Source: Candidatus Limnocylindria bacterium
Lineage (GTDB): Bacteria > Chloroflexota > Limnocylindria > P2-11E
Length of the DNA stretch: 64,000 nucleotides
Direction: 5' to 3'
Assembly: GCA_035935465.1 (NCBI GenBank)
Contig: DASYXA010000089.1
Coordinates: forward strand, 9,692-73,691
The position numbers and the translations under genes were made by a program. Every line of letters starts with the position of its first letter. The stretch's first letter is position 1. The notes beneath the pieces are model-generated. The model saw only the letters and a list, made by a program, of their open reading frames with translations, was not told the origin of the DNA and did no database searches. Below, in pieces: positions 25,099 to 50,308 of this stretch.

Positions 25099-26220
25099 CT
25101 ATTCGGCCTTCTCCGGATAGAGGCTCGGATCGAGCTCCTCGGCCTTCGCGCTGCGCTGCGACAGGGCGAGCACGACGACACCGAACAGCACGAGCACGCC
25201 GACGAAGGCGTAGGTCTGCGCGCGGCCGCTCGACAGGAACGCGAGCGCGCCGAGACCGAGGGTGATCGCGTAGATGAGCAGCACGGCCTGGCGGTGCGAC
25301 AGGCCGACGTCGAGCAGCTTGTGGTGGAAGTGGCCGCGATCGGGCGCGAACGGCGCTTGGCCCGTGACGAGGCGGCGGACGATCACGTAGAAGGTGTCGA
25401 TGATCGGCACGCCGAGGACGAGGAGCGCCGCCGCGACCTTCGCGGTGCCGAAGATCGACAGCACCGCGAGCATGGTGCCGACGAACGCGACGCCGGTCGT
25501 GCCGAGGAACACCTTCGCCGGATGGACGTTGAAGACGAGGAAACCCGCGATCGCGCCCGCGAGCGTGAAGTTCATCCACGCCACGAACGGCTCGTTCACC
25601 GCCGGCAGGAGCGCGGTGGCGCCGAGGGCGACGGCCGCGATGGCCGCGACGCCGGCGGCCAGGCCGTCGAGCCCGTCGATGAAGTTCAGGGCGTTGTTCA
25701 TGCCGACGATCCAGAAGACCGTGAATCCGATCGCGATCGGCGGCGCGAGCTGGATGAGCCCGTCCCCGCGCGGGTCGTTGATGAAGTCGACGCGGATGCC
25801 GGCCGCGACGATGATCGCCGCGATCGCGAAGTAGCCGAGCAGCTGCCAGCGAGCCCGCAGGTCGAGGGCGTCGTCGAGCACGCCGACGGCGAGCCCGAGG
25901 AATGCGGCCATCGCGGTGAGCGTGAAGCGCGGCGTGCGGACCTCCTCGGGGATGAGGAACGGGTGACCGTTCAGCCGGTCGACGAGCCAGAACGCGAACA
26001 CCGCGAGCCCGAACGCGATCGCGATCCCGAGGCCGCCGATCCGCGGGATCGGCTCGGGATGCGTCCGCCGGCCACCGGGTGTGTCCAGGAGCCCGATCCG
26101 GCGGGCGAGCGCGCCGACGATCGGCGTCACCGCGAGCGCGATGAGGAACGCGAGCAGCGCCGAGCCGGCGAACAGCAGGAGCGTGCTCGCACTGACCGTG
26201 ACGGAGAGGAACGGATCCAT
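25099..26220 (-). CDS. wecA: Undecaprenyl-phosphate GlcNAc-1-phosphate transferase (WecA/TagO/Rfe, MraY-family polyprenyl-phosphate N-acetylhexosamine-1-phosphate transferase)
   Basis: 373-aa, 10-11-TM protein with the NALNFIDGLDGLA motif. It occupies the position of rfe in the conserved actinobacterial gene order. Confidence 0.8.
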   Translation of the reverse strand: MDPFLSVTVSASTLLLFAGSALLAFLIALAVTPIVGALARRIGLLDTPGGRRTHPEPIPRIGGLGIAIAFGLAVFAFWLVDRLNGHPFLIPEEVRTPRFTLTAMAAFLGLAVGVLDDALDLRARWQLLGYFAIAAIIVAAGIRVDFINDPRGDGLIQLAPPIAIGFTVFWIVGMNNALNFIDGLDGLAAGVAAIAAVALGATALLPAVNEPFVAWMNFTLAGAIAGFLVFNVHPAKVFLGTTGVAFVGTMLAVLSIFGTAKVAAALLVLGVPIIDTFYVIVRRLVTGQAPFAPDRGHFHHKLLDVGLSHRQAVLLIYAITLGLGALAFLSSGRAQTYAFVGVLVLFGVVVLALSQRSAKAEELDPSLYPEKAE

Positions 26221-26849
26221 CAGCTCGTACCGAACTGGCGGTCGCCGGCGTCGCCGAGGCCGGGGACGATGTAGCCCTTCTCGTTCAGGCGCTCGTCGAG
26301 CGCCGCGACGTGGACCGGGACGTCAGGATGCGCGTCGCTCAACGCCCGCACGCCCTCGGGCGCCGCGATCAGGCCGACGTACTTCACCCGGCGCGCACCC
26401 CACCGCTTGAGGATCTCGATCGTCGCGACGGACGAGCCGCCGGTCGCGAGCATCGGGTCGAGGACCAGGCAGACCTGCGCGGTCGCCTCCGACGGGAGCT
26501 TGTTGTAGTACTCGATCGGCCGGAGCGTGTGCTCGTCGCGGAACAGGCCGATGTGCCAGACCTGCGCCTCCGGGATGAGCTGCAGCGCCGCCTCGACCAT
26601 ACCGATGCCCGCTCGCAAGACCGGCACCAGACCGATCGTCTGGCTCAAGCGCGCCCCGGTATATGGGGCGAGCGGCGTCCGCACCTCGGCCGGAACGGTC
26701 GACAGGTCGGCGGTCGCCTCGTAGAGGACGAGCAGCGCGATCTCGTGGACCAGCCGCCGGAACTCCGGAGGCGGCGTCCGCTCGTCACGAAGGCGCGTGA
26801 CCTTCTCCTTGACGAGCGGGTGGGTCGAGACGTGGAGCTGGTCGGTCAG
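26220..26849 (-). CDS. upp: Uracil phosphoribosyltransferase
   Basis: [16 protein letters not shown]...[11 protein letters not shown]...[16 protein letters not shown] aligns end to end with Upp. There is no canonical start; CTG at 26847-26849 overlaps the glyA TGA as CTGA. Confidence 0.8.
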
Positions 26850-28114
26850 GCTCGGGCCGGCTCGCGGGTGGTCGGGGATATCCCGGGCACCGGGAACCGG
26901 CGCGTCAGGTCGAGCACCTCGTCGGCGATCTGCTTCGCGATCGTCTCGTCCTTCGCCTCGCGCAGGGCGCGGGCGATGAGCGCGCCGATACGCTCCATCT
27001 CGGCTTCCTTCATCCCGCGCGTCGTGATCGCGGGCGTGCCGATGCGGATGCCCGACGCGGTCCCCGGCTTCTGCGGGTCGTACGGGATGGTGTTCTTGTT
27101 CACGGTGATCCCGACCGCATCGAGGAGCTTCTCCGCCGCCTTGCCGGTGAGGCTCATCGGCCGGACGTCGACGAGCATGAGATGGTTGTCGGTGCCGCCC
27201 GATACGACGCGGAGCCCGGCGCCCGCGAGCGCCGCGGCGAGCGTCGTCGCGTTCGCGCGGATCTGCTTCGCGTAGGTCCTGAACTCCGGCGTCGCCGCTT
27301 CCTTGAGCGCGACGGCCTTGCCGGCGATGACGTGCATGAGCGGGCCGCCCTGCGCGTACGGGAACACCGCCTTGTCGACCGCCTTCGCGTACTCCTCGGT
27401 GCAGAGGATCATCCCGCCGCGCGGGCCACGGAGCGTCTTGTGCGTCGTGGTGGTCACGATCTGCGCGTGTGGCACCGGGTTCGGATGCTCCCCCGCCGCG
27501 ACGAGACCGGCGAAGTGCGCCATGTCGACCATCAGGAGCGCGCCCACAGCGTCGGCGATCGCCCGAAGGCGCGCGAAGTCGAAGAACCTTGGATACGCGG
27601 TCGCGCCGGCCACGATGAGCTTCGGGTGGTGCTCCGTCGCGAGGGCTTCGAGCGCGTCGTAGTCGATGGTCTCGTCGTCGCGCTTCACCCCGTACGGCAC
27701 GAACGTATAGAGCTGGGCCGAGAAGTTCACCGGGGAGCCGTGGGTCAGGTGGCCGCCCTGATCGAGGGCCATGCCGAGCACCACGTCGCCCGGCTTGAGG
27801 ATCGCGGCGTAGGCCGACATGTTCGCCTGCGCGCCGGCGTGCGGCTGGACGTTCGCGTGCTGCGCGCCGAACAGCGCCTTCGCGCGCTCGATCGCCAATG
27901 ACTCGGCGACGTCGACCCACTCGCAGCCGCCGTAGTAGCGGTGCCCCGGGTAGCCCTCGGCATACTTGTTCGTGAGCACGCTGCCGACCGCGTCCAGGAC
28001 CGCCTGGCTCGTGTAGTTCTCGGACGCGATGAGCTCGATCTTCTCGACCTGCCGCTTGCGTTCGCTCTCGATCGCCGCGTAGATCTCCGGATCGATCCGT
28101 TCGAGCTCGCTCAT
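26846..28114 (-). CDS. glyA: Serine hydroxymethyltransferase
   Basis: [22 protein letters not shown]...[17 protein letters not shown] verified at 28112-28114 with an AAAGGTGAAAGGGA Shine-Dalgarno. The 60-aa N-extension in the ORF track is junk. Confidence 0.95.
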
Positions 28115-35030: not shown

Positions 35031-35864
35031 ATGGGCGCGTCAGGCGCGGCGTTCGACACGACGATCGACGTCGAGGGCTTCGATCCCCTCGCGGCGACGC
35101 CGCGCGATCCCGAGACGCAGAGGCTCGCGGCGCGCGCGGCCGGGGTGAGGCTCGACGACGTGCCGCCGCCGTACGACGACGAGCTTCGCGATCTCGTGGC
35201 CGCGCGGATCCGCGAGGCGATCGACGCAAGGCTGCCGCCGCTCATCCGCGGGGCCGTCGGTCCTCCCGAGTACGGGCTGATCGTCGGATACACCGACGAC
35301 GACCGGTTCCTGGTGCGCACGTTCTTCGACAAGGACGACAAGCCGAGCCAGATCGGCTGGCCCGACTTCATCGACGCGGAGCACGGCGGCCCGATCTTCC
35401 TCGATGAGACGGGTCCCCCCGAGCGCGCGATGGTCGCGAAGGGCGGCCTCGATGCCGGCCTTGCGCGCGCCGAGCGCTCCCTCGGGGCGCTCATGGGCTG
35501 GGCCACGGCGCTGCGCGACGAGGCACGGTGGGCCGATGTGAAGCACGCCGGCACCGCGGCGTTCGCCGATCACGCGATGCGCGTCGTCCTCGCGGACAAG
35601 CGGCGGGCCGCGGCCCGGTTCCTGCGCGGGCTGCGCTCGTTGTTCACGACGCCGGGCGGAGATCTGCTTCGCGCGGCCGAATCGTACGGTTACGTCGTGG
35701 AGGCGCTCGAGAAGGTCGGGACGAAGCCGTTCGACGCGTCGGTGGCGATGCGGTTCCTCGACCCGGGCCACCGCCGCGGCATCGCCAAGGCGCTGGACGC
35801 CGTCCTCGGCCACGAGCAGGAGGCCCACGACGCGCTCCGGGCCGCTCGTGCGAGCATCCGGTAG
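35031..35864 (+). CDS. Hypothetical protein
   Basis: 277-aa product with non-junk composition (YGLIVGYTDDDRFLVRTFFDKDDKPSQIGWPDFIDAEHGGPIF). No family recognised. Confidence 0.45.
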   Translation: MGASGAAFDTTIDVEGFDPLAATPRDPETQRLAARAAGVRLDDVPPPYDDELRDLVAARIREAIDARLPPLIRGAVGPPEYGLIVGYTDDDRFLVRTFFDKDDKPSQIGWPDFIDAEHGGPIFLDETGPPERAMVAKGGLDAGLARAERSLGALMGWATALRDEARWADVKHAGTAAFADHAMRVVLADKRRAAARFLRGLRSLFTTPGGDLLRAAESYGYVVEALEKVGTKPFDASVAMRFLDPGHRRGIAKALDAVLGHEQEAHDALRAARASIR

Positions 35865-35883
35865 GACATGCGGAGATCGATAG

Positions 35884-36684
35884 CTGACTGACCAGCTCGC
35901 GGCCGTCATCCTCGGCCTGGTACAGGGACTCACCGAGTTCCTGCCGGTGAGCTCGACCGCCCACCTCATCCTGGTATCCGACGTCCTCAAGCTCGACCCT
36001 GCGAAATTCGGACTCAGCTTCGATGTCGCGCTGCACCTCGGGACCGCGCTCGCGGTCCTCGTCTACTTCGCCTCGGCCTGGATCGGCCTCCTCGGCGACG
36101 TGCTGCGCGGCCGCTGGCGGCTGCCGATCGTCATCGTCGTCGGGACGATCCCCGGGGCCGTCGCCGGCGTGCTCCTCGAGACCGCGGTGTCCACGACGCT
36201 GCGGAGCGCCGTGTACATCGCGGTCGGTCTGGTCATCGGATCCGCGGTCTTCGTCCTCGCCGAGCGCCTCGGGGCGCGGCGGCGCCGGCTCGAGCGCGCG
36301 TCGCTCGTCGACGCGGTCGTCATCGGCGCGGCCCAGGCCCTCGCGCTCCTTCCCGGCATCTCGCGATCGGGCATCACGATCTCGGCCGGGCTGTTCCGCG
36401 GTCTCGAGCGCGGCGACGCGACGCGGTTCTCGTTCCTCCTGGCCACACCGATCATCCTCGGCGCGGGCGCGAAGACGCTGCTCGACGCGCGCAAGCTCTC
36501 CGGCCTCACCGCGGAGCTGGACATCGTCCTCATCGGCTTCGCGGTGTCGTTCCTCTCGGGCCTCGCGGCGGTCGCGTTCATGGTCCGGTACCTGCGCACG
36601 CATTCGCTGAGCGTCTTCGTCATCTACCGCGTCGCGCTCGCGGTCGTCATCCTCGCGGCGGTGGCCGTCGGCGCGCTGAGCTGA
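35884..36684 (+). CDS. uppP: Undecaprenyl-diphosphatase UppP/BacA
   Basis: LTDQLAAVILGLVQGLTEFLPVSSTAHLILVS...GISRSGITISAG. The conserved N-terminal helix lies upstream of the only canonical start (GTG 35947). An in-frame TAG at 35881-35883 is followed at once by CTG at 35884. Confidence 0.75.
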   Translation: MTDQLAAVILGLVQGLTEFLPVSSTAHLILVSDVLKLDPAKFGLSFDVALHLGTALAVLVYFASAWIGLLGDVLRGRWRLPIVIVVGTIPGAVAGVLLETAVSTTLRSAVYIAVGLVIGSAVFVLAERLGARRRRLERASLVDAVVIGAAQALALLPGISRSGITISAGLFRGLERGDATRFSFLLATPIILGAGAKTLLDARKLSGLTAELDIVLIGFAVSFLSGLAAVAFMVRYLRTHSLSVFVIYRVALAVVILAAVAVGALS

Positions 36685-48869: not shown

Positions 48870-49562
48870 CTAGACCTCGGCGCTGTGGATGGCGGCGATG
48901 CCGAAGGTCACGCGTTCGTAGGTCACTCGGACGAATCCGGCCTCGCCGAGCATCGCGGCGAGGCGGTCGGCGTCGGGGAACCGGCGCAGCGAGCGCGGCA
49001 GGTAGCGGTACGCGTCGCGGTCCCCACCGAGCAGCGCCGCCGCCGCCGGAAGGACGCGCTCGAGATAGAAGGAGTAGAGCCGGCCGAACGCGGGGTTCGG
49101 CGGGTGCGACAGCTCGAGCACGACCGCTCGGCCCCCGGGCCGCAGGACGCGCCTGAACTCGCCGAACGCGCGCGCGAGGTCACCGACGTTGCGGACGGTG
49201 AAGCCGGTGACGATCCGGTCGACGCTGGCGTCGGGGAACGGCAGCCGCTCGGCGCTACCCACGAGCGGGACGATGCGAGACGCCTGCGCCCCGGCGGCGC
49301 GGCGCGCGAGCACCGCGAGCATCCCGGCCGACAGATCGACCGCCGTGACGCGCGCGCCGCGCGCCGCGGCCGCGAACGACAGATCGCCGGTCCCGGCACC
49401 GACATCGAGGACCGTCGCGCCCGGCCGGATGTCCGCGCGCGCGATCGCGCGCCGCCGCCAGCCGACGTCGGTGCCGAACGAGAGCACCCGGTTGAGGACG
49501 TCGTAGCGCGCCGCGATGCGGTCGAACATCGTCGCGATCTCGCGGTCGTGCGCGTCGTTCAT
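48870..49562 (-). CDS. ubiE: Demethylmenaquinone / ubiquinone methyltransferase UbiE/MenG
   Basis: MFDRIAARYDVLNRVLSFGTD...VLDVGAGTGD. Confidence 0.8.
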   Translation of the reverse strand: MNDAHDREIATMFDRIAARYDVLNRVLSFGTDVGWRRRAIARADIRPGATVLDVGAGTGDLSFAAAARGARVTAVDLSAGMLAVLARRAAGAQASRIVPLVGSAERLPFPDASVDRIVTGFTVRNVGDLARAFGEFRRVLRPGGRAVVLELSHPPNPAFGRLYSFYLERVLPAAAALLGGDRDAYRYLPRSLRRFPDADRLAAMLGEAGFVRVTYERVTFGIAAIHSAEV

Positions 49563-49579
49563 CAGCCGCGAACGCTAAC

Positions 49580-50308
49580 CTGTCAGCCATCGGCACCGCG
49601 CTGTTCATCTACGCCCATCCCGACGACGAATCGTTCGTGTCCGGCACGCCCATGACGCTTGCCGCCGCGGGACACCGGATCGCGCTGCTCACGCTCACCC
49701 GTGGCGACGCGGGCCTCTGGCTCGGCAAGACGTTCGGTTCGTGGTCGAAGCCGGAGCTCGGGGCGGAGCGCGCGAACGAGTGGGCCGCGGCCGTGGCCGT
49801 CATCGGCTACCACTGGTCGACGCTCCTGCGGTATCCGGACGGCGGCCTCAAGGACGCGCCGGCCGAGGTCATCACCGCCGACGTCGTCGAGGCGATCCGC
49901 GCGGTCCGCCCCGACGTGGTCTGCACCTTCGGCCCCGAGGGCGCGGGCAGCGAGCACGACGACCATCGGTCCACGTCGTACTTCGCCGCGCGCGCCTTCG
50001 CGCGCGCGGCGCTCGCCGACCAGTACCCCGAGCGCGGCGAGCCGCATCTCGCCCGGCGGCTCTACTTCAGCGCGACCCCATACACGGCCGGCGCACCTGC
50101 CGCGTTCGGCGCGACGACGCCGACCCATGTCATCGACATTTCGGCATTCGAGAAGCGGAAGGCCGACGCATTCGAGTGCCATAAGACGCAGCACAAGGAC
50201 CGCGCCTTCTTCTACGACCTCCTGAAGCGCCGCGCAGGCAAGGAGTATTTCCATCTCGCGATCGACCGCACCGGGGCGCCGACGGGCTCCGACGACCTGC
50301 TGGCCTAG
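49580..50308 (+). CDS. PIG-L / LmbE-family N-acetylglucosaminyl deacetylase
   Basis: The zinc motif AHPDDES lies upstream of the first canonical start (GTG 49637), and no ATG/GTG/TTG precedes it in frame. CTG at 49580-49582 sits 1 nt after a TAA and gives (M)SAIGTALFIYAHPDDE. Confidence 0.65.
   Translation: MSAIGTALFIYAHPDDESFVSGTPMTLAAAGHRIALLTLTRGDAGLWLGKTFGSWSKPELGAERANEWAAAVAVIGYHWSTLLRYPDGGLKDAPAEVITADVVEAIRAVRPDVVCTFGPEGAGSEHDDHRSTSYFAARAFARAALADQYPERGEPHLARRLYFSATPYTAGAPAAFGATTPTHVIDISAFEKRKADAFECHKTQHKDRAFFYDLLKRRAGKEYFHLAIDRTGAPTGSDDLLA

Follow-up and report, generated by a model that had tools for sequence, protein, structure and literature searches.

Probable near-cognate CTG start codons at uppP and upp in a soil Chloroflexota bacterium, with proposed re-initiation through a short relay ORF

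This study was concerned with the start of uppP, the gene for undecaprenyl-diphosphate phosphatase (BacA family), in a stretch of 64,000 nucleotides from contig DASYXA010000089.1. The whole stretch is referred to as the window. Its source is an uncultured soil Chloroflexota, and the best UppP matches carry the names of Candidatus Limnocylindria metagenome-assembled genomes (MAGs). The comparisons indicate that uppP is probably intact and functional and begins at a near-cognate CTG codon, which ribosomes would reach by termination-reinitiation (TeRe) through a relay upstream open reading frame (uORF) of seven codons. The uracil phosphoribosyltransferase gene, upp, would use the same principle in a simpler form. 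This is the reading we favor, with some confidence and considerable reservations. The anatomy of the sequence, the start positions of the orthologues, the conservation, the recurrence of the design and the coding periodicity are direct observations.

Position and conservation of the uppP start

The first ATG, GTG or TTG in the uppP frame is GTG 35947, which sits past the QGLTEFLP motif. Because this codon encodes residue 22, a product starting there would lose that active-site motif. The ORF read from CTG 35884 matched the Pfam family BacA (PF02673) with E = 9.7e-76, residues 7-255 falling on profile positions 1-257 of 257, and it aligned with the E. coli UppP crystal structures 5oon/6cb2 over residues 5-256 (E = 1.7e-35). 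The motif QGLTEFLPVSST occupies residues 14-25, and residues 5-25 align with a structured part of E. coli UppP. The product also contains PGISRSGIT, and the N-terminal (E/Q)xxxE motif is present provided that translation starts at or before ATC 35908. In the E. coli structures, the (E/Q)xxxE and PGxSRSxxT motifs have a catalytic role.

The start positions of orthologues were counted over the best 120 UppP matches. Exactly 266 residues were found in 101 of them, opening with M/V-[S/T/N/D]-D-Q-L-A-A-V-I-L-G, and their start corresponds to CTG 35884. A first-pass annotation of this DNA had assigned the region before GTG 35947 to UppP and had proposed the N-termini of orthologues as a check; both the orthologue starts and the alignment of residues 5-25 bear it out, since relatives start at the CTG position and not at the downstream GTG. 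Its positions for the TAG, the CTG, the uORF and GTG 35947 all agree with the sequence. The comparison thus supports the view that the uppP start must lie upstream of GTG 35947 and that CTG 35884 is the orthologous start position, as no ATG, GTG or TTG keeps the conserved N-terminus. The TAG directly before the CTG closes the uppP frame, so no in-frame start farther upstream is possible. Read-through of this TAG was considered and rejected, because the frame upstream of it is the non-coding frame of the preceding gene and orthologues start at the CTG position.

The ratio of nonsynonymous to synonymous substitution rates (dN/dS) between the window uppP and four relatives was 0.15-0.28, and that between pairs with canonical starts was 0.15-0.23. 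The similarity of these values indicates that uppP is not decaying.

Leader of uppP in the window

In relatives, uppP follows the upstream gene at tight junctions (TAGATG, TAAATG, TGAGTG, TGAATG, TGA-C-ATG and TAG-AAC-GTG) without a Shine-Dalgarno (SD) sequence. A start 0-3 nt past a stop codon and without an SD indicates that uppP was ancestrally coupled to the upstream gene. The closest relatives of the window uppP (P0003, P0004 and P0020) have canonical starts. A scan of genome contigs with the single UppP protein recovered only 5 loci.

The window differs by a lineage-specific spacer of 19 nt, which holds an ATG, a GGAG located 8 nt before the CTG, and the TAG. The spacer is missing in the closest relatives, where the uppP ATG or GTG stands directly or 1-3 nt past the upstream stop; the comparison set comprised L099-102 (TAA ATG AGT GAC), L087-89 (TGA ATG), L001-L003, L004 (TAG AAC GTG) and L104-106. 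Two parses of the spacer suit the sequence equally: 19 extra bases, or 3 nt and a retained ancestral ATG (TAG-GAC-ATG, the geometry of L004) followed by a 16-nt insertion, CGGAGATCGATAGCTG, ending in the CTG. Under the second parse the ATG of the uORF looks like the stranded ancestral uppP start; it lies 3 nt past the upstream TAG, as the uppP start does in L004. No second copy of the spacer occurs in the window, and comparison by eye gave no convincing derivation by tandem duplication of the start region. The uppP leader is identical in an independent Logan assembly (L086, SRR12347814), which shows 2 mismatches over 6.7 kb.

The TGA of the uORF overlaps CTG 35884 at -8 (CTGACTGA). The first-pass annotation had pointed to a GGTAGGA before the uORF; it ends 1 nt from the ATG and is unusable as an SD. 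The GGAG inside the uORF had been overlooked. A promoter scan of 35400-36100 found no promoter-like site, and thus none between the upstream gene and uppP, and a terminator scan of the same region found one weak terminator-like site, at 35624 within the upstream gene. A hairpin of 5-6 bp that includes the CTG (AGCUG-N4/6-CAGCU) is predicted in all four CTG-type uppP leaders. It showed no gain in stability over shuffled sequence (z of -0.7, -1.2, +0.25 and +0.26). Rfam gave no match at the gathering threshold in the window or in nine loci with an upp leader (see below), and a permissive scan of L033 returned only noise. The uORF does not look like a regulatory leader peptide: its product MRRSIAD is unrelated to the MERT[S/G] of the second case described below, the folds equal those of shuffled sequences and no Rfam family was found.

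A second uppP case in the 259-residue clade

Five UppP matches of 259 residues (P0102, P0103, P0108, P0112 and P0113) proved to be gene calls from a GTG at codon 8. P0112 alone was found on 24 contigs. The DNA of this clade (L090-L098) reads TAG-(AA)-GTG/ATG-GAA/GAG-CGA-ACG-AGC/GGC-TGA, with the TGA overlapping CTG-AGC/AAC-GAT/GAC-CAG. Thus a CTG stands at the ancestral start, a uORF of five codons (MERT[S/G]) stands at the old start place 0-2 nt after the upstream TAG, and the two overlap as CTGA (-4). In L090, L095 and L097, GGAG or GGAA lies exactly 8 nt before the CTG. The start of the uORF alternates between GTG and ATG and is always canonical, and a 2-nt upstream indel leaves the uORF intact.

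In neighbor-joining trees with 200 bootstraps, the clade was monophyletic in 199/200, was sister to the canonical-start P0033 (TAG ATG AGC at its uppP start) in 169/200 and joined the window in 0/200; the lack of such a grouping speaks for separate origins of the two cases. The spacers of the window and the clade differ in their central bases and in length, being alike only in the GGAG and AGCTG at their ends. The uORF stands to the main ORF in a +1 frame relation in the window and in a -1 relation in the clade. These opposite relations rule out a common frameshift mechanism and fit re-initiation.

Start of upp on the glyA stop codon

On the other strand of the window, the proposed CTG start of upp (26849-26847) overlaps the TGA of glyA (26848-26846) as CTGA (-4). 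Downstream, no canonical start comes before codon 56; upstream, the nearest lies 357 codons off, inside glyA. The upp starts were compared over 83 related loci. A locus was scored as lacking a canonical start when the 40 codons preceding the conserved HPL motif held none, the stretch ending earlier where an in-frame stop or the contig end was nearer. By this definition, 45 of the 83 loci have CTGA on the upstream stop and no canonical start before HPL, and 34 have a canonical start. In the remaining four (L031, L039, L040 and L046, one sub-lineage), an ATA overlaps the TAG that ends glyA, and codon 55 is the first canonical start. By its layout, ATAG is a second kind of putative near-cognate start at the glyA-upp junction. 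A canonical codon occupies the same position as GTGA in L021 and L049 and as TTGA in L020. In many CTG-type loci the next canonical start comes only at codon 55-76. Thus no canonical codon keeps the N-terminus of upp, and some relatives have their start at the same position.

The summed entropy per codon position was calculated for 33 unique CTGA-type sequences. For codon positions 1/2/3, the values were 1.8/2.0/8.3 in codons 2-12 and 2.5/1.4/12.9 in codons 13-25; upstream of the CTG, the entropy peak moves to the third position of the glyA frame. This third-position periodicity from codon 2 indicates that the upp frame is under coding selection from the CTG onward. A 4-nt SD core 4-10 nt upstream of the start was present in only 1 of 39 unique contexts. 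The NCBI annotation pipeline (PGAP) annotates the upp CTG in GCA_036565245.1 and GCA_036564905.1, and other callers give truncations of 197 residues.

Leader ORFs between glyA and upp

In sister lineages, glyA and upp are set apart by a conserved leader of 90-160 nt, one copy per locus, which is absent from the window. The 12 unique leader-bearing loci are L023, L026, L027, L029, L033, L036, L037, L043, L050, L054, L059 and L072. A leader ORF (MSEERLRRDERI...) opens on the glyA stop as GTGA, TTGA or ATGA, and in 6 of the 12 it closes as CTGA on the upp CTG. It has 30 codons in L036 and L072, 42 in L026, 51 in L023 and 29 in L029/L043. The 36 extra nucleotides of L026 and the 63 of L023 preserve its frame. 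In its layout, the putative leader ORF repeats the relay design of uppP at greater length. The leader also holds a hairpin, CTCGGC-GAAG-GCCGAG, which had no Rfam match, and it may serve as a regulatory leader for upp.

The 15-mer shared by uppP and upp

The first-pass annotation had noted, correctly, that the 15 bases at the uppP start (CTGACTGACCAGCTC) and those at the upp start (CTGACCGACCAGCTC) agree at 14 positions and use the same codons for L-T-D-Q-L. Exact matches to CTGACYGACCAGCTC in the window are these two copies only. In 932 kb of related DNA, the motif likewise occurred only at the starts of uppP and upp; those loci were fetched around the two genes, so the sample is biased to them.

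The proposal that the 15-mer is a shared functional element did not survive the comparison with relatives. At the uppP start they read ATGAGCGACCAG or ATGAGTGACCAG, and only L004 has GTGACCGACCAGCTC; those with ATG or GTG have AGC or AGT as codon 2, and the 15-mer differs. In relatives of upp it varies at third, synonymous codon positions, as coding sequence does. Judged by these relatives, the 15-mer is merely coding sequence for (M)TDQL in both genes and not a signal. The chance of 1e-6 to 1e-7 that had been given for the match assumed two random 15-mers, which is the wrong null, as each 15-mer covers codons 1-5 of a gene and the genome has a third-position GC content (GC3) of ~94%. At this GC3, two proteins opening x-T-D-Q-L share codons. 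The true coincidence is therefore one of four shared N-terminal residues, about 1e-5 to 1e-4 per gene pair and about 0.02-0.1 per window of ~60 genes (rough estimates, not computed). The match is thus a modest coincidence, found after the fact.

PIG-L and the frequency of start-less genes

A third gene of the window, for a PIG-L/LmbE deacetylase, has no ATG, GTG or TTG before its AHPDDE motif; the first canonical start, GTG 49637, lies past the motif. The start candidates are CTG 49580, which aligns with the ATG of P0242, CTG 49601 and ATC 49607, the last being the choice of PGAP (P0361, 233 residues). Among the best 120 homologues, 34 are truncations of 218 residues, and the CTG context is kept in L004. 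Two further features adjoin this start. An ORF that opens with ATG runs antisense to the 5' end of ubiE (49516-49578) and ends 1 nt ahead of CTG 49580, and the divergent ubiE itself (48870-49562, minus strand) starts only 17 nt from that CTG.

A scan for further start-less genes by GC3 alone was dropped, since antisense shadow frames made it too noisy, and was replaced by a Pfam truncation check. Of 20 other ORFs in the window with at least 10 codons before the first canonical start, none was truncated by this check. Thus about 3 of the 55-60 genes of the window are start-less (uppP, upp and PIG-L), a share far above that of non-canonical starts annotated in model genomes (bioRxiv 10.1101/063800), on small numbers. 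PGAP also gives an ATC start to a DUF72 gene (L103:3802-4626) of a related MAG (GCA_036565245.1), a possible further near-cognate start in the clade.

Neighboring genes and feature coordinates

The features of the three loci are given in Table 1. The gene upstream of uppP encodes a hypothetical protein that is called in L086/L087/L088 and conserved in L001-L004, and a Pfam search of it found no family. Its orthologues have 277, 306 or 331 residues in L087, L090 and L099. The tight stop-start junction across the clade suggests that this protein may be functionally linked to undecaprenyl-phosphate or cell-wall metabolism. The genes beside uppP vary among close lineages (the window, L087, L090 and L099). 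Downstream, the HIT gene and the HAD hydrolase each occur in only some of them, as does a gene of 309-313 residues upstream, so that the locus is evidently prone to rearrangement.

Table 1. Positions of the uppP, upp and PIG-L features in the window
Feature	Position	Strand	Basis or remark
Upstream gene, 277-residue conserved hypothetical	35031..35864	+	ORF list; stop is TAG 35862-64
Lineage-specific 19-nt spacer GACATGCGGAGATCGATAG	35865..35883	+	Comparison with relatives
uORF, 7 codons, MRRSIAD	35868..35891	+	ATG CGG AGA TCG ATA GCT GAC TGA (35889-91)
SD-like GGAG	35872..35875	+	Inside uORF, 8 nt before CTG 35884
In-frame TAG	35881..35883	+	Directly 5' of the CTG; translation
CTG, proposed uppP initiation codon	35884..35886	+	Start position conserved in orthologues
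uppP (undecaprenyl-diphosphate phosphatase, BacA family)	35884..36684	+	266 codons and stop
uppP 15-mer	35884-98	+	Motif search of window
ATC, rival uppP start	35908..35910	+	Chosen by NCBI PGAP; HEV2250502.1 (P0001), 258 residues, begins MLGLVQGL
GTG, only canonical uppP start	35947..35949	+	Codon 22; Logan gene call of 245 residues
upp (uracil phosphoribosyltransferase)	26220..26849	-	Pfam UPRTase 3.7e-72, profile 1-206 from residue 7
upp 15-mer, codons 1-5, L/M-T-D-Q-L	26835..26849	-	Motif search of window
glyA (serine hydroxymethyltransferase)	26846..28114	-	Pfam SHMT 1.9e-166
PIG-L/LmbE deacetylase, open frame	49496-50308	+	Pfam profile begins at 49601

Proposed mechanism and alternative explanations

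The events at uppP could be as follows. The insertion of 16-19 nt would cut the ancestral ATG or GTG off from its frame. The upstream gene would be the source of ribosomes for the relay: those ending it at TAG 35862-64 would restart 3 nt on, at ATG 35868, in the place of the old uppP start. After reading seven codons they would stop at TGA 35889-91, move back 5 nt and start again on CTG 35884, assisted by the GGAG 8 nt before it. At its ancestral position, the CTG would be read as formylmethionine and give a normal enzyme of 266 residues. At upp, termination of glyA would feed the start directly, as the CTG overlaps the glyA stop. Actual re-initiation at the CTG, and its efficiency, are what we infer from these layouts.

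The ORFs concerned are co-directional and separated by a few nucleotides or overlapping (+3 and -8 at uppP, -4 at upp and -4 in L090-L098). TeRe operates at overlaps or very short distances, and -8 is the shortest phase-1 overlap (PMC10666635, PMC12548453). In E. coli, CUG and AUA are among the four near-cognate codons that initiate at ~1-2% of AUG (bioRxiv 10.1101/063800). The match of the layout with the published distance rules, together with CUG and AUA being among the better near-cognates, supports re-initiation on the CTG. The downstream translation may depend on upstream translation and termination; indirect support comes from the start and stop of the uORF, kept in diverged variants, the in-frame leader ORFs and the SD-less upp. 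The TeRe geometry that the first-pass annotation had seen at uppP alone thus recurs in the 259-residue clade and at upp, and stands as far as comparison carries it.

Several points weigh against this reading. If the insertion in the window is very recent, as it may be, the dN/dS test carries little weight. A -8 overlap is reported to be less efficient than -4 (PMC10666635). The GGAG is at an ideal spacing, and ordinary SD-led initiation by 30S subunits could suffice without the uORF. The chance that a spacer of 16-19 nt has a start codon in a frame ending near the CTG is estimated at ~0.2-0.25 per case, and any NTG-A start makes a TGA in the +1 frame, so the association of uORF and CTG rests on few independent events. 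In the 259-residue clade, GTG at codon 8 could be the true start, and codons 2-7 show only 3 synonymous changes and one S/N change. In addition, the comparisons are based on MAGs and metagenome contigs.

Plain SD-led initiation at CTG 35884 is the main rival. Here 30S subunits would bind at the GGAG, and the uORF would have no necessary part, having come about through the insertion as a remnant of the ancestral ATG. The spacing of the GGAG is optimal, the same 8 nt recur before the CTG in L090, L095 and L097, and in E. coli a good SD lets CUG initiate at a low level (bioRxiv 10.1101/063800). This explanation deserves to be taken seriously and is nevertheless improbable in our judgment, because uppP in the clade normally abuts the upstream stop without an SD and the CTG starts of upp persist though 38 of 39 contexts lack one. 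Moreover, in the 259-residue clade neither the GTG/ATG exchanges nor a 2-nt indel has cost the uORF its canonical start, and the leader ORFs between glyA and upp hold their frame through inserts of 36 and 63 nt. Alternatively, uppP could be recently broken, or the spacer could be an assembly or strain artefact, so that no full-length UppP is made, or a truncated one from ATC 35908 or GTG 35947, with another phosphatase covering for it. This particular spacer is indeed confined to this lineage, the closest relatives (P0003, P0004 and P0020) being canonical, and PGAP picked the ATC and the Logan call the GTG. We regard such a loss or artefact as quite unlikely: the 266 codons are intact with a dN/dS no higher than in relatives, the same sequence appears in two different assemblies, the spacer provides precisely a CTG at the ancestral position with an SD 8 nt away, the same design is kept by a diversified clade from many samples, and a product from GTG 35947 lacks the conserved QGLTEF motif.

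Two further explanations are very improbable. One is recoding, in which translation from ATG 35868 would shift by +1 at GAC-TGA-C, or peptidyl-tRNA-Asp would hop from GAC 35886 to GAC 35890, giving MRRSIAD(D)QLAAV.... The tandem repeat TGAC TGAC with its identical take-off and landing GAC codons, the stop codon in the A site and the weak stop context TGA-C are what such an event would use. In the +1 frameshift of prfB, a stimulatory SD lies ~3 nt from the shift site. At uppP there is no slippery P-site codon, since a +1 shift from GAC to ACU finds no re-pairing, and the GGAG is 10 nt from the shift site (GAC 35886). The 259-residue clade would need a -1 shift at ACG-AGC-TGA, again without a slippery site, which leaves no common mechanism, and recoding is unneeded for upp and the leader ORFs. 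The other is that CTGACYGACCAGCTC is a cis-acting start signal of upp and uppP, either an RNA element or a protein-binding site. The two copies agree at 14 of 15 positions at gene starts without canonical codons, and the small predicted hairpin AGCUG-N6-CAGCU includes the CTG. The divergence of the 15-mer in relatives of both genes, hairpins no stabler than shuffles, the lack of an Rfam match and of copies in the 932 kb away from these two gene starts largely refute this idea. The preferred reading thus remains TeRe on the CTG through the relay uORF.

A wider reading is possible and is put forward tentatively, as one we would sooner doubt than accept. Limnocylindria, or at least this family, may tolerate CTG, ATA and ATC starts far more than model bacteria do, just where a ribosome has terminated; a few percent of genes would lack a canonical start, and relay uORFs would evolve repeatedly as adapters. 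If so, post-termination re-initiation would escape the usual start-codon proofreading of the initiation factor 3 (IF3) type in a whole bacterial class.

Significance and comparison with known systems

If the proposed relay is real, these loci are natural, evolutionarily tested cases of CTG re-initiation lasting long evolutionary periods, and uppP is a gene whose displaced start codon was rescued by a tiny relay ORF. Such cases bear on how post-termination ribosomes pick starts, by 70S or 30S scanning, and on the role of IF3. There is also a practical side. On this reading, standard gene callers mis-start these genes (upp at 197 residues for 209, uppP at 245, 258 or 259 for 266, and PIG-L at 218), and truncated calls without active-site motifs spread through protein databases for very abundant soil bacteria.

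Several known systems resemble parts of this arrangement. The gene infC uses an AUU start, and no autoregulatory logic of the infC kind is evident at uppP or upp. Frameshifting of the prfB type and short hops also involve a short ORF ending in TGA-C just upstream and out of frame, as here, with GAC duplicated; uppP differs in having no slippery codon, the wrong SD spacing and a frame relation of +1 in one uppP lineage and -1 in the other. A literature search brought up no account of CTG starts in Limnocylindria and none of a CTG in coupled overlaps. PMC4648390 concerns eukaryotic re-initiation.

The closest likeness is with TeRe coupling at short overlaps, NTGA (-4) among them (Huber et al. 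2019, PMC6728339; 2023, PMC10666635; review, PMC12548453). There the genes likewise are co-directional with a stop/start overlap or a gap of a few nucleotides, and the downstream gene often lacks its own SD, as at upp here. In those systems the downstream start is ATG, GTG or TTG; here it is CTG, or ATA in four loci, and the coupling is deduced from sequence. In the passages searched in PMC10666635 and PMC12548453, non-canonical starts (ATT) appear only to explain odd overlaps. The iraD gene of E. coli is similar in that translation of a short upstream ORF is coupled to the main ORF, as described in PMC5574718; its uORF is a platform for regulation by CsrA, whereas here the uORF precedes a near-cognate main start and its peptide differs between lineages (MRRSIAD and MERT[S/G]). 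Near-cognate initiation in bacteria (CUG, AUA, AUC and AUU at ~1-2% of AUG in E. coli, bioRxiv 10.1101/063800) likewise uses codons one base from AUG, presumably with the initiator tRNA; the present case differs in that dozens of diverged lineages retain the CTG of upp and that at uppP a CTG arose twice together with a uORF. Translational coupling itself is thus known, and here it would use near-cognate starts.

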